IMG/VR virus record: IMGVR_UViG_3300042558_005120
Location: 45,207 to 109,206 of that record
Direction: 5' to 3' (one strand)
DNA from: a virus
Length of the DNA: 64,000 bases
The number at the start of each line of letters is the position of its first letter. Position 1 is the first letter of the stretch. The notes under the pieces are model-generated. The model had not been told where the DNA came from, ran no database searches, and was given only the letters and a program-made list of their open reading frames with translations. Of this stretch, positions 8,023-56,118 are shown piece by piece. A program made the position numbers and the translations under genes.

Positions 8023-8358
8023 TTAACCTAAATCTGTAATTTTGCTATGAACACGCTCACCAAGTTTTGAAAGAGAGTAATGCTTTTCTCCGTTTTTTTC
8101 AACAACATTAAAGTATTGCTCATTTCTTCTCACCCATTGCGGTGATGTTGTTCTTTGTGAGCCTTCGTTCATGCCTTTAATAAATTCGTATAGTGCAGCC
8201 TTTGTTACTGTTTTGTTTTCTTTAACAAAAGATAAAATTCTTTCACGAACAGGCGCATAGTCTGAAACAACTGTTGCTGGATGATTATCTGTGTATTTTC
8301 TTTTTACGGTTATAAGTGATTCACTTAAGAAAGTTTCGAAATCCATTATAAAACTCAT
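8023..8358 (-). CDS. Leader-bearing putative internal head protein, winged-helix-like
   Basis: Probable start at Met10 of the track ORF (MSFIMDFETFLSE), 18 nt after TGATATATA; ends ...HYSLSKLGERV. Confidence 0.65.
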   Translation of the reverse strand: MSFIMDFETFLSESLITVKRKYTDNHPATVVSDYAPVRERILSFVKENKTVTKAALYEFIKGMNEGSQRTTSPQWVRRNEQYFNVVEKNGEKHYSLSKLGERVHSKITDLG

Positions 8359-8369
8359 ATCTTTAATTT

Positions 8370-8384
8370 TTTTAGTATATATCA
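8370..8384 (-). promoter_or_regulatory. Putative late promoter TGATATATACTAAAA
   Basis: Identical 15-mer at 38364-38378 and 56987-57001; 9-mer core at three more gene starts. Confidence 0.6.
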
Positions 8385-8406
8385 CTTAAGAGTTAGTGTA
8401 ATTTTA

Positions 8407-10218
8407 TCAAACATAAAAAACACTGTCGAATCTGGATTTTACTAAATACCAAAACGGGTGCATTTCCTCAGGTGTTAGTTTCTGAAACTCTGTTTCACTT
8501 GTTCCAATTTCAATTACCTCAAGTGCATCTTTGTATAATTTTTTTGAAATTTTCTCAAGTTTCCATTTATATCCTTTTTCGCCCCAGATCGCTTTGAAAT
8601 TTTTTGTTTCCATCTCAAATAATTCATAATTATTTACAGAACAATAAATGTGCTCTGGTATAAAATTATCACATTTAGTAATTACTTTCTGAATAAGTGG
8701 AATGTCTAATATATAATATCCAAGAAAAATTTCATTTCGATTGTTTACAAATCTAGACGCTATTTTCTCAACGTCTTGAGTTTGCATATGAAGAAAATCA
8801 TCCTTTACATCGTGGAAAAGAATAATTCTTTTCTTTGTCTGTTTGTGGATATTCTCTAATTGGTCAACTAATTTTTTCGTAATTAAAGAAAGATTACATA
8901 CAACAACAGTTACCGCTTCTTTTTGCTCGTATGACCTTTCGCCGTCGAAAAAGGATTCTAATAAAACAATCGACTTTTCAACTTTACTGTCATCTGAGCC
9001 AGATTCTTTTTTATCTTCTTTCTTTTGACCTTCTTTTTTGTCTTCTTTCTTGTCTTCTTTCTTGTCTTCCTTTTTGTCTTCCTTTTTGTCTTCCTTTTTG
9101 TCTTCCTCATTTAAAATAAAATTAAACTCTAAAAAGGAATAGTCACTTTCAACAAGCCTTGAAATTTCTTCAATTTTTGTATTAAAGTTATTAACAATAC
9201 TTTCACTTAATAGACCGCTTGGGTATTTTGGCTTCTTTAAATTTGCTAGAAATACAGTAAACAAATATTCGTATCTACTATCACTTTCGATAATTTGACT
9301 TGTTGTTTTGTTTGAAATCCACTGCGAGTTGAAATTTCCACTTTTCTCTAAAAATTTAGGACGCTCCAGACCGGAATCCAAAAAGTCAGGTCCTTTTGCT
9401 TCAACAAAGGAATTAAAAATTTCTGATACGGTTTCCAAATATGCAATATCCGTATCCTTTGTGTCCGATTTAATTTTATTAATGTTAATTGTATTGATGT
9501 GCTCGCAAATTTCTAAAAGTAAAATATCAAAAAGATGCCCTCTCGATTCCTTTTTACTTTCAATAACTGTATCACTTTCAAGTTTGAAAAGCAAATCCTG
9601 TTGTTCAAATACAATCGAATCTATTTGCTGTTGGGCTTCATTTAGTAATCCTTTAACTGGGAAAAAGGATTCATTGATTTGCTCAGATTCAGATTTTGCA
9701 ATACTTACTAATTGTTCTATGCTTTCTTCACTGAGTTCACCTTCGAAAAGAGGTTTATTCCATTCGCACCCAAAAATACTTGACCATCTTTCTAAGACCT
9801 TTGAATCTTTGATGTCTCTGGAAATGTCTGAATCTGGTTTTCTGATTGTGATATCCGTTAAGACTAATCCTTTTCTAGGTCGTCTTTCATAACGTGTGGA
9901 TAACGGTGCATTGGTTGGAAACCATGAAAACCCGAACCGATGGCGTGGAGGTATTGAGTTTTTAATTTCGGACGGCAAGCTTTGAATATGCGTAATAGCC
10001 TGTTCATATAAGTCATTAATTGTGCGGTCAATTTTATTGAGCGGAACCTTTCCGTTCTTTCCATAGAAATAAATTTGATAATTATCTTGGTTTTTTTCAA
10101 ACGCAAACCGATAAGCATCGAACTTTTCAGTGATGCGGGTTTCTCGTTTCAGAGTCTCACGAAGACCTTTTTCTCCGACTTTTTTGTAGAGTTCTCTAAT
10201 ATTTTTAATCCCAGCCAT
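8407..10218 (-). CDS. Degenerate RNA-ligase-like domain, KKED linker and degenerate cytidylyltransferase-like domain
   Basis: ITEKFDA resembles ligase motif I; the C-terminal third aligns by eye to the HxGH protein at 16963-17568 but lacks HxGH. Confidence 0.5.
   Translation of the reverse strand: MAGIKNIRELYKKVGEKGLRETLKRETRITEKFDAYRFAFEKNQDNYQIYFYGKNGKVPLNKIDRTINDLYEQAITHIQSLPSEIKNSIPPRHRFGFSWFPTNAPLSTRYERRPRKGLVLTDITIRKPDSDISRDIKDSKVLERWSSIFGCEWNKPLFEGELSEESIEQLVSIAKSESEQINESFFPVKGLLNEAQQQIDSIVFEQQDLLFKLESDTVIESKKESRGHLFDILLLEICEHINTININKIKSDTKDTDIAYLETVSEIFNSFVEAKGPDFLDSGLERPKFLEKSGNFNSQWISNKTTSQIIESDSRYEYLFTVFLANLKKPKYPSGLLSESIVNNFNTKIEEISRLVESDYSFLEFNFILNEEDKKEDKKEDKKEDKKEDKKEDKKEGQKKEDKKESGSDDSKVEKSIVLLESFFDGERSYEQKEAVTVVVCNLSLITKKLVDQLENIHKQTKKRIILFHDVKDDFLHMQTQDVEKIASRFVNNRNEIFLGYYILDIPLIQKVITKCDNFIPEHIYCSVNNYELFEMETKNFKAIWGEKGYKWKLEKISKKLYKDALEVIEIGTSETEFQKLTPEEMHPFWYLVKSRFDSVFYV
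9004..9107 (-). repeat. 12-bp coding tandem repeat encoding (EDKK)n
   Basis: Six tandem EDKK units followed by EGQKKEDKKES. Confidence 0.95.
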
Positions 10219-10243
10219 TTTAATATTTTGTTTAAATTCTAAT

Positions 10244-10252
10244 TATATATCA
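10244..10252 (-). promoter_or_regulatory. Putative late promoter TGATATATA
   Basis: Intergenic, about 26 nt before the ATG at 10218. Confidence 0.55.
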
Positions 10253-10255
10253 AAG

Positions 10256-54456: not shown

Positions 54457-54463
54457 AATTTTT

Positions 54464-54580
54464 TTAATTATTTGATATAGATTTTAGAACTTCAGAATTG
54501 CTTCTCATTCTTTTAAGTGTTTTGTTTGCTGATTTTTTGCTTTTAGTATAAAATTTTGCTTTTTTTCTATTTTTTGCCAT
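54464..54580 (-). CDS. Small basic peptide, 38 aa
   Basis: Below the track cutoff: MAKNRKKAKFYTKSKKSANKTLKRMRSNSEVLKSISNN; fills the gap between two array genes. Confidence 0.55.
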   Translation of the reverse strand: MAKNRKKAKFYTKSKKSANKTLKRMRSNSEVLKSISNN

Positions 54581-54601
54581 GTTTTTGTAAAAAGTATTTT
54601 T

Positions 54602-55018
54602 TTATTTAGCAGCAGAGCCCCATATATCGGTTCTGGTAATATCAATATCACCATCCCAACCCCAATCTTTAAACTCTTTTTCTATTTTTGCATAAATATC
54701 TGCATTGTTGACGTAGACTTCAGCTTTTTCCATTTTTGGATCATACGGTCCACCGTACTTATCAAATTCGCCATCTTGGTAAACGGATATTTTTTTTCCA
54801 TTTTTAAGAGTGCCTTGTACTGAAAAAGAAACAGCGTCAAATTCAATATCACCCGAAACAAGACCTAAGTCGTCAATTATTCCTTCAATATATTCTTGAA
54901 TAGTAGGGCCGGTTTGTGTAACCATAATTGGAGGATCAACCATATACGATACATTTCCAATTTTTCCTTGATTGCTTGACTCATTTAAAAATCCGTCAAA
55001 TGTTTTAATGTGTTTCAT
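54602..55018 (-). CDS. Leader-bearing hypothetical protein
   Basis: True start probably Met11 of the track ORF: MKHIKTFDGFLNE. Confidence 0.7.
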   Translation of the reverse strand: MKHIKTFDGFLNESSNQGKIGNVSYMVDPPIMVTQTGPTIQEYIEGIIDDLGLVSGDIEFDAVSFSVQGTLKNGKKISVYQDGEFDKYGGPYDPKMEKAEVYVNNADIYAKIEKEFKDWGWDGDIDITRTDIWGSAAK

Positions 55019-55031
55019 AGTTTTTATTTTT

Positions 55032-55724
55032 TTATTTATTTCTAGCATTTCCTAAAGCATCACCAAATTCTAATGCTACTCTCACTAATTTTTCAATTTC
55101 TAAATCAATTGATAAACATCTAAATTTCATTGTTGGCGCAAAAAGCATTGCAAAACCCCAACGGTGATGTCCGTCAATAATAAAGTTGTCATTTGATACA
55201 ACAGAATTTTTACTTTCAACAATTGCAATTGCTTTGGGTAAGCCATGCTCCAAAAATCCAATACATTCATCAAAATAGATTTGTTCTTGAATTGGTTTTA
55301 ATTTATTGGCAGGAATCGGTTCAAATTTTGCACTTACTTTATCGTCATCTTCAATACCATCCAATTTTCCGGCAGTCATAAAAACTTCAGCATTTGTTGT
55401 ATTGATAATCAAACCTTTTGTTGTGAAATCAGAATAAGGTTTATGGACATCTATCAACCCGTCAGTTAATTTATCTGCAAACAAACTCACATCTCCACCG
55501 GATAATACTGGCATATCCTTTCTTTTGGTTTTTCCTGTAACAACCCATTTTTGTAAAGTTAGAAAATTACGTTCAAATTCTTTTTGGTCAATCCATTCGA
55601 AATATCCTTTCTCTTCCATTAACTTCACAGCAGTTTTAAGGTCGATTTTTGCGACTTCATATTTACCAGCATCTCGTCCGCCGGCTTCCGCAATAAAACT
55701 TTCGAATGTTTTAATGTGTTTCAT
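55032..55724 (-). CDS. Leader-bearing ParB/Srx-fold protein
   Basis: Leader MKHIKTFESFIAE; LKPIQEQI, VSNDNFIIDGHHRW. Confidence 0.75.
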   Translation of the reverse strand: MKHIKTFESFIAEAGGRDAGKYEVAKIDLKTAVKLMEEKGYFEWIDQKEFERNFLTLQKWVVTGKTKRKDMPVLSGGDVSLFADKLTDGLIDVHKPYSDFTTKGLIINTTNAEVFMTAGKLDGIEDDDKVSAKFEPIPANKLKPIQEQIYFDECIGFLEHGLPKAIAIVESKNSVVSNDNFIIDGHHRWGFAMLFAPTMKFRCLSIDLEIEKLVRVALEFGDALGNARNK

Positions 55725-55737
55725 ATTTATATTTTTT

Positions 55738-56118
55738 TTATATGAGATGTAATGCCCACTGAGAACTTGTACTCATTTTCATATTTATTAAATAATTCTT
55801 TTTATACTTTTCATTATAATAGCCAGAAATAGCTAAAAAGGCATTAAGATGATGGTAGTTTTCGCTTTCTAACTCTTCGTGTATTGTGTCCGCATTGCTG
55901 CTGATATGTTTTTCGATTCCCGCTTTTTCTATTTCAGTATTCAACATATCAATATATTTTTTCTGTTTTGCCAAGTCTTCGTAAATATCGTCTGCGCTTT
56001 GGAAACCCAATGTAGCCCATCCTTTGTCGGCAATATCCATTAAGGTGCTAGCTATTTTCAAGCCGTATAAATTTTCATTTAAGAAATTTTCAAAATCTTT
56101 AATGTGTTTATGTTCCAT
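55738..56118 (-). CDS. Leader-bearing hypothetical protein
   Basis: Leader MEHKHIKDFENFLNE. Confidence 0.7.
   Translation of the reverse strand: MEHKHIKDFENFLNENLYGLKIASTLMDIADKGWATLGFQSADDIYEDLAKQKKYIDMLNTEIEKAGIEKHISSNADTIHEELESENYHHLNAFLAISGYYNEKYKKNYLINMKMSTSSQWALHLI

Follow-up and report, generated by a model that had tools for sequence, protein, structure and literature searches.

A T4-like N-terminal tag on two arrays of unrelated genes in an uncultured jumbo myovirus, a candidate capsid-targeting propeptide

In phage T4, a short N-terminal capsid-targeting sequence (CTS) on the internal proteins IPI, IPII and IPIII and on Alt directs these proteins to the core, is removed by gp21 (MEROPS family S77), and can also load foreign proteins (Mullaney and Black 1996, summarised in PMC5694885 and PMC3012670). 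In the jumbo phages phiKZ and SPN3US, propeptides of inner-body and ejection proteins are processed by an S80 protease at [S/A/G]-x-E (PMC5694885, PMC7411985, PMC10052503). Here we describe a comparable tag in a 64,000-nucleotide stretch of viral DNA (the window, i.e., bases 45207-109206 of the 109,206-bp linear IMG/VR contig IMGVR_UViG_3300042558_005120, working label G000). A 13-residue N-terminal sequence with the consensus M-K-H-I-K-[T/L]-F-E-x-F-[L/I/V]-N-E opens otherwise unrelated proteins encoded in two gene arrays, and we put at roughly 60% the probability that it is a T4-type capsid-targeting propeptide, cut after its final Glu by a gp21-type (S77) prohead protease. Judging from these sequences, the phage probably packs a large protein kit into its capsid.

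Each start at which a first-pass annotation of this DNA had placed a shared leader proved to be a minus-strand ATG followed by the motif. A position matrix built on 17 clear copies and scanned over the whole 109-kb contig (cut-off ≥10 bits) returned 24 matches, all of them on the coding strand (24/24), which split into 20 at open reading frame (ORF) starts, one complete internal copy, and three weak off-target matches. At the same cut-off the reversed genome gave one match and residue-shuffled proteomes a mean of 0.4, and at 20 bits there were 17 matches in the contig vs none in the controls. For the core F-[E/D/N]-x-[F/Y]-[I/L/V/T]-x-E, the minus strand had 16 occurrences against a single one on the plus strand. 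In window coordinates, clear copies have start codons at 56118 (tag from 56112), 55724, 55018, 54456, 54074, 52454, 52110, 18492, 17568, 16722, 16505, 16144, 14328, 13879, 13636, 13271, 12968, 12047, 11601, and 8358. About six degenerate copies score below 10 bits (22207, 21809, 20792, 16960, 15592, and 14679), including the two, at 15592 and 21809, that had been called weaker from the start. The tagged genes sit in array 1 (window 8023-22207) and array 2 (window 51772-56118), with two more just upstream of the window (genome 42748 and 44173). Those in the window are as follows, lengths being in amino acids (aa) and GATATATA being a promoter-like octamer discussed below:

55738..56118, minus strand: tagged, 126 aa, tag from 56112 after M-E, array 2, 37.4 bits, no Pfam match
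55032..55724, minus strand: tagged, 230 aa, tag end F-I-A-E-A, 38.2 bits, phrog_2859 of unknown function
54602..55018, minus strand: tagged, 138 aa, 37.4 bits
54088..54456, minus strand: tagged, 122 aa, 38.4 bits
52122..54074, minus strand: tagged, 650 aa, two tags (25.4 and 40.3 bits)
51772..52110, minus strand: tagged, 112 aa, 37.8 bits, last gene of array 2, directly upstream of a 715-aa structural gene
21830..22207, minus strand: degenerate tag ending F-L-I-E-G, 125 aa, first gene of array 1, GATATATA 45 nt upstream
20799..21809, minus strand: weak tag-like N-terminus, 336 aa, <10 bits
19488..20792, minus strand: degenerate tag ending Q-F-L-N-E, 434 aa, DUF6267-like virus-only fold from about residue 25
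17578..18492, minus strand: tagged zeta-toxin-like P-loop kinase, 304 aa, phrog_5268 (E 5e-97)
16963..17568, minus strand: tagged cytidylyltransferase-like (HxGH) nucleotidyltransferase, 201 aa, Pfam domain from residue 26, 25.0 bits
16736..16960, minus strand: tag variant shorter by one residue, 74 aa
16513..16722, minus strand: tagged, 69 aa, 30.3 bits
16122..16505, minus strand: tagged, 127 aa, first 10 residues match and the end diverges, 16.0 bits
15620..16144, minus strand: tagged, 174 aa, first 10 residues match and the end diverges, 17.9 bits
14681..15592, minus strand: RimK-type ATP-grasp, 303 aa, PF08443 (E 1e-31), short degenerate tag, GATATATA 25 nt upstream
14338..14679, minus strand: degenerate tag, DUF5824 protein, 113 aa
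13876..14328, minus strand: tagged cREC_REC (cyclic-phosphate-processing receiver), 150 aa, domain from residue 22, 40.8 bits
13652..13879, minus strand: tagged, 75 aa, 27.1 bits
13277..13636, minus strand: tagged, 119 aa, 37.0 bits
12984..13271, minus strand: tagged, 95 aa, 40.8 bits, tag DNA 38/39 identical to that of the tag at 14328
12066..12968, minus strand: tagged, 300 aa, no family found, 38.1 bits
11610..12047, minus strand: tagged DUF6934 protein, 145 aa, 38.3 bits
10945..11601, minus strand: tagged, 218 aa, 25.4 bits
8023..8358, minus strand: tagged, 111 aa, start at ATG 8358 and not GTG 8385, 25.4 bits, GATATATA 25 nt upstream

The bodies behind these tags are unrelated, as the first-pass annotation had claimed, with no BLASTP pair at E 1e-3 once the first 16 residues were removed; it was equally right that similarity stops at the terminal Glu (conservation ends at Glu13 in at least 218 non-redundant tags) and that no replication or tail gene starts with the leader. 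Recognisable cargo domains begin at about residue 20-26, and the tag is thus an add-on. The internal copy at 52454 also held up as a complete tag, lying at residue 541 of the 650-aa ORF (52122-54074) behind sequence that resembles the 5' flank of this ORF's own start. Such UTR-like (untranslated region) sequence before the internal tag suggests that the ORF is likely two cassettes fused in frame, the alternative being an internal start; no homologue of this ORF was found in any fetched locus.

The tag extends well beyond this contig. An exact degenerate DNA pattern was found in 22 IMG/VR stretches and a looser one in at least 120. The tag logo and statistics were drawn from a scan of the IMG/VR loci among the matches listed, which gave at least 353 matches and at least 218 non-redundant tags, frequently grouped in arrays of up to 15 copies within 15 kb. 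Glu13 is present in 99% of these tags, position 11 is L/I/V in 97%, and position 14, left out of the selection criteria, is Ala/Ser/Gly in 62%. Complete or near-complete genomes carry 9 to 22 strict-pattern copies (0 for a reversed-pattern control), and matrix counts reach about 23 in one relative (G016) and about 30 in another (G034). In the uncultured 462-kb phage LR756500.1 a tag variant, M-K-Y-I-x-E-Y-E-E-F-[L/I/V]-x-E, occurs 11 times, with several copies clustered within 4 kb (e.g., 313874-317720), and LR756504 has one copy. A full-text literature search for the motif strings matched no paper.

At the DNA level, codons at conserved tag residues follow roughly the genome-wide synonymous usage (e.g., TTT 10 and TTC 8 at Phe10; ATT 8, ATC 4, and ATA 2 at Ile4), and the DNA upstream of the tags is merely A-rich and not conserved. 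Because synonymous codons vary and the bodies are unrelated, selection, as read from these alignments, acts on the peptide. We therefore consider it very improbable that the conserved element is one of the nucleic acid itself, be it an A/T-rich translation-initiation region without Shine-Dalgarno pairing or a recombination handle. Such an element would fit the A/T-rich codons, the A-rich upstream DNA with no Shine-Dalgarno-like sequence apparent in the printed rows, and the two tag stretches that agree at 38/39 positions, synonymous ones included, a likeness suggestive of recent recombination; in T-even phages, conserved tag DNA has been proposed to mediate internal-protein gene swapping. However, it is amino acids that are kept among the paralogues and at least 218 tags, namely the helix-face hydrophobic and acidic residues and Glu13 and not particular nucleotides, while synonymous codons vary in a genome-typical way. 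The near-identical pair points to occasional recombination between tags, and recombination is compatible with a targeting propeptide as a by-product.

Residue by residue, the tag is much like the T4 CTS. Both are short and N-terminal, start with M-K, and carry an aromatic-x-x-aromatic-[L/I]-x-E core that ends in the protease site and is followed by Ala or Ser, and both occur on otherwise unrelated, polymorphic proteins. Set against IPII and IPIII, the logo of the tags has in common with them the initial M-K and the core [F/Y]-[E/Q]-x-F-[L/I]-x-E. T4 IPII and IPIII begin M-K-T-Y-Q-E-F-I-A-E-A, and the gp23 maturation site is G-S-F-L-T-E-A-E with the Glu at residue 65 (both sequences checked); tags in the contig end E-S-F-L-N-E-A or F-I-A-E-A, the latter in the copy at 55724, for which the match to IPII and IPIII had been pointed out before. 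The likeness includes the surrounding genes: relatives have a protease of the T4 family (PF03420), and the genes for capsid (Gp23), portal, sheath, and tube are of T4 type. What is new relative to T4, as far as the genes tell, is a longer tag (13 residues vs 10, with three extra after M-K), its use in long tandem arrays, with 20 to 30 or more tagged genes in each genome (vs 3 or 4), cargos that are not basic and include enzyme-type proteins (kinase, nucleotidyltransferase, ATP-grasp, and receiver domain), and, in relatives, a protease fused to a repeat-bearing scaffold; hosts here are probably Bacteroidota.

Two other systems invite comparison. Like the group studied here, phiKZ and SPN3US are jumbo phages; they package dozens of proteins, many of them trimmed after Glu by a T4-related protease, and their propeptides are regarded as targeting signals. 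Those propeptides, however, are mostly longer than 100 residues and protein-specific, in contrast to one shared portable tag, and the cleavage motif differs, as does the lineage, which is unrelated to the Lak/PAU-related group. In encapsulins, a short terminal peptide loads diverse enzymes into an HK97-fold shell and cargo is predictable from sequence, but the peptides are usually C-terminal, bind the shell directly, and stay uncleaved, and cargo is not delivered to another cell, so we draw a functional analogy only.

The contig (CheckV completeness 38%; GC content 0.345; nearly all genes on the minus strand) is a fragment of an uncultured jumbo myovirus. It encodes tail, packaging, and replication proteins of T4 type (portal, sheath, tube, split terminase, clamp loader, Rad50/Mre11-like proteins, a gp32-like protein, and ribonucleotide reductase). 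Among deposited phages its structural proteins have distant relatives only, in LR756500.1, the Lak megaphages of Prevotella, the Tenacibaculum phages pT24 and PTm1, Sphingomonas phage PAU, and Flavobacterium phage MaF61, and a distant DNA search with the structural region against cultured phages gave no match. Given the hosts of these relatives and the A-rich upstream regions without an evident Shine-Dalgarno sequence, the host probably belongs to the Bacteroidota. The relative G034 (238 kb, 84% complete) has 86 ORFs in common with the contig, in the same order, and its portal is 74% identical.

The gp21-type protease expected for such a tag was absent from the contig and present, as an S77 protease, in the collinear G034. 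There, the protease gene and a Gp23-family capsid gene lie at 185-193 kb, about 165 kb from the portal gene, and tag arrays flank them at 175-182 kb and 193-204 kb. In G016 and a further genome, G001, the order is portal, small tagged gene, protease, capsid, further head-region genes, and clamp loader. This block is not found in the contig (genome 19343-23312, outside the window), where about 1.3 kb of small ORFs lies between portal and clamp loader instead; when the G016 core, protease, capsid, and post-capsid proteins were searched against the contig by tblastn, the portal alone matched. About 30 relatives, with portal identities of 46-100%, lack the same block, and from this pattern the contig's lack of protease and capsid genes appears to reflect a clade-level rearrangement. 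With no protease, capsid, or scaffold gene in the contig, the link between tag and protease rests on relatives. Among tag-bearing IMG/VR contigs, the only ones in which co-occurrence was counted, PF03420 (S77) was found in 24/33 and in 3/3 complete genomes. Tags also reach the head genes themselves: in most G016-type genomes a conserved tagged gene of 112-134 aa separates the portal gene from the protease gene, in the position that genes 67 and 68 occupy in T4, and the gene after the capsid gene often begins with a tag-like sequence.

In the three genomes examined, the protease ORF (576-623 aa) joins an N-terminal S77 domain to a C-terminal scaffold-like region:

G034, 189221-191092: S77 protease-scaffold fusion ORF
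G016, 51569-53383: S77 protease-scaffold fusion ORF
G001, 40719-42449: S77 protease-scaffold fusion ORF

The protease also weakly matches PF20034 (S80). Its scaffold-like C-terminus of about 400 aa contains about eight Y-x-x-[Y/H]-[L/I/V]-x-E repeats with a period of 14, and aromatic-[L/I/V]-x-E motifs number 7 to 10 in the whole ORF and fall mostly within these repeats (in G034, 1.6 per 100 aa vs a proteome mean of 0.28). The tag thus looks like one unit of the scaffold repeat, which suggests that it may enter the core by packing with these repeats, and the tag end is very probably the site of the S77 protease, to judge from the motifs. Capsid proteins keep L-[N/Y]-E directly before the Gp23 domain, and this motif, near residue 45, is the likelier capsid cleavage site; an L-I-N-E at the very start of the capsid protein was considered and dropped as a site because it aligned with the start of the T4 gp23 propeptide.

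The reading of the tag as a cleaved capsid-targeting propeptide, which the first-pass annotation had also favoured, thus draws on the likeness to the T4 tag, S77 co-occurrence, tags on head genes, the recurrence of the motif in the protease-scaffold fusion, and a putative late promoter common to tagged and structural genes, with protease and capsid seen only in relatives. Several results weigh against it. The contig, 38% complete, has neither an S77 nor a Gp23 Pfam match, and neither does G008, a tag-bearing contig of 88% completeness, have an S77 match. S77 proteases are in any case frequent in large contigs of aquatic phages, and the co-occurrence, counted in tag-bearing contigs, is supportive evidence, short of proof. 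No homology of the small tagged head-module protein to T4 gp68 or gp67 could be detected (hhalign probabilities 0.1 and 0.3). A scan for the leader found no copy in cultured relatives (MaF61, pT24, PAU, PTm1, MA9V-1, and Lak-A1 scanned). The cargos have a median isoelectric point (pI) of 6.4, equal to that of other proteins, and are not basic, unlike T4 internal proteins. Finally, T4 gp61.1 and KP15 UvsW.1 begin with a T4-tag-like heptad and neither is annotated as a head protein; T4 gene 61.1 (NC_000866 18966-19130, 54 codons, hypothetical, adjoining the primase gene) starts M-K-T-F-K-E-F, the same first seven residues as internal protein I. N-terminal likeness alone is therefore weak and not diagnostic.

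Some of these points would suit a docking helix for another partner (e.g., a chaperone, degron system, modifying enzyme, or compartment), with tagged proteins acting in the cell and never in the capsid, a possibility that we regard as unlikely. Conservation at the peptide level and portability fit any common binding partner, the ordinary pI and the cytoplasmic-type enzymes among the cargos (ATP-grasp, nucleotidyltransferase, kinase, and receiver domain) agree with it, and gp61.1 and UvsW.1 show similar N-termini outside annotated head proteins. Such a helix would nevertheless leave unexplained the T4 protease motif plus a small residue at the end of the tag, the recurrence of this motif within the protease-scaffold protein, the tagged gene between portal and protease, and the tag arrays on either side of the G034 head module; no candidate partner gene was seen co-occurring.

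Turning to the cargos, recognisable domains are a zeta-toxin-like kinase, a cytidylyltransferase-like nucleotidyltransferase, a RimK ATP-grasp, and a cREC_REC receiver, besides DUF5824, DUF6934, and a DUF6267-like fold. The earlier description of many cargos as enzymatic is partly borne out, with four enzyme families, but a domain is recognisable in only about 6/25 cargos; the 300-aa cargo and most small cargos had no match in Atlas and Pfam searches. Lengths range from 69 to 650 aa (median 138 aa). For the receiver-domain cargo, AlphaFold run on the single sequence gave a poor model (pLDDT, the model's confidence score, 56), which at most hints at a short helix (residues 7-15) preceding the receiver fold. 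Given the large size of the cargos and the absence of a hydrophobic core from the tag, we rejected two further ideas on the leader: a secretion signal, and a leader of the type found on ribosomally synthesised and post-translationally modified peptides, for which there is also no associated maturase gene and several cargos are folded enzyme domains (the sole ATP-grasp gene, relevant to the maturase question, itself bears a degenerate tag).

The same cargos bear on whether targeting to the prohead serves delivery at all, since the tagged proteins could be internal head or assembly parts (core fillers, DNA organisers, degraded and expelled) and not injected effectors. We hold this to be quite unlikely. 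Many cargos are small and without a recognisable domain, and most T4 core proteins (gp22, gp67, and gp68) are fragmented and lost (PMC5694885); several cargos, however, are intact enzyme folds with no evident assembly role, and arrays vary between close relatives, unlike essential parts. Array 2 (seven tagged genes, window 51772-56118) is an insertion relative to G034 104931-107958, where homologues of the flanking 275-aa and 715-aa genes directly adjoin. By this comparison the arrays are hyperplastic, with contents that vary between close relatives.

The kinase cargo offers a view across lineages. It has 1259 homologues at E <=1e-10, and homologues occur in 213 cultured Straboviridae. In other lineages they begin with different short T4-type N-termini before the same conserved body, several of them close to the T4 tag itself; homologues in the cultured Straboviridae KP15, RB43, and Aeromonas phage 65 begin M-K-[S/K]-F-x-x-F, and a near-consensus T4 late-promoter box lies upstream in KP15 and RB43. 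This pattern fits a conserved packaged protein with a lineage-specific tag. No virion proteome covering the kinase was found: the KP15 paper has none, and Morganella phage MP1, which has one, is without the gene.

With regard to timing, the octamer GATATATA is strand-specific (coding:other = 16:0 in the contig, 32:2 in G034, and 30:1 in G016). The genes that it precedes, at a distance of 12-63 nt, include those for tube, sheath, and protease, giant structural genes, tagged genes, and the genes heading both arrays; in G034 and G016 the octamer is conserved before the genes for protease, sheath, and tube. Its sites in the window are as follows, with nine others elsewhere in the contig:

56993-57000, minus strand: GATATATA, 36 nt upstream of the 275-aa fibre-like gene heading array 2
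22245-22252, minus strand: GATATATA, head of array 1
15610-15617, minus strand: GATATATA, inside array 1, before the ATP-grasp gene
8376-8383, minus strand: GATATATA, before the tagged ORF at 8358
51637-51644, 38370-38377, and 10244-10251: GATATATA, further window sites

By its position, GATATATA is probably the late promoter of this phage group, and from this promoter-like motif we infer late timing of the tagged genes. Untagged genes also occur in and around array 1: an endolysin gene (PG_binding_1 and Amidase_2; window 18507-19448) in its middle, a 126-aa ORF at 10256-10636 between tagged genes, and a 603-aa ORF at 8407-10218 that has its own GATATATA motif and no family match.

Mechanistically, we propose that tagged proteins would be made late, alongside structural proteins, and that the short amphipathic tag, through its aromatic-x-x-aromatic-[L/I/V]-x-E core, would co-assemble with the prohead scaffold core, the scaffold being the C-terminal part of the protease protein with its roughly eight copies of the same seven-residue motif. 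The S77 protease would then cut after the final Glu, before a small residue, to leave mature cargo inside the head, and the cargo would exit with the DNA at infection; co-assembly, cleavage, and exit are steps that we infer from gene content and motifs. New genes could gain packaging by acquiring the tag, and such portability would explain hyperplastic arrays of unrelated genes.

A wider reading, which we advance tentatively and would bet somewhat against, is that one portable tag, possibly derived from or mimicking the scaffold repeat, defines the packaged and injected proteome of a large uncultured clade of jumbo or huge phages (Lak/PAU-related, genomes of 240-480 kb, probably phages of Bacteroidota). 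Dozens of effectors in each phage could then be recognised by sequence, among them nucleotide-, NAD-, or RNA-repair-type enzymes that would be delivered before transcription, and the arrays would be rapidly evolving effector libraries built by tag-mediated cassette exchange. The anti-defence or host-takeover role that the first-pass annotation had suggested for the cargos is speculation.

If the tag does work in this way, the injected proteome of a whole uncultured jumbo phage group could be listed from sequence, and even the small sample covered here would contribute more than 200 distinct tagged proteins to the list; this would enlarge the known repertoire of phage proteins acting before transcription (e.g., in counter-defence and host takeover). 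It would also mean that a phage can recruit new cargo through simple gene fusion to one address peptide, and would provide a second natural tag, longer than the first, with which foreign proteins could be loaded into T4-type capsids. The link between the tag and the scaffold repeats also suggests a concrete, testable mechanism by which T4-type targeting sequences may be recognised.

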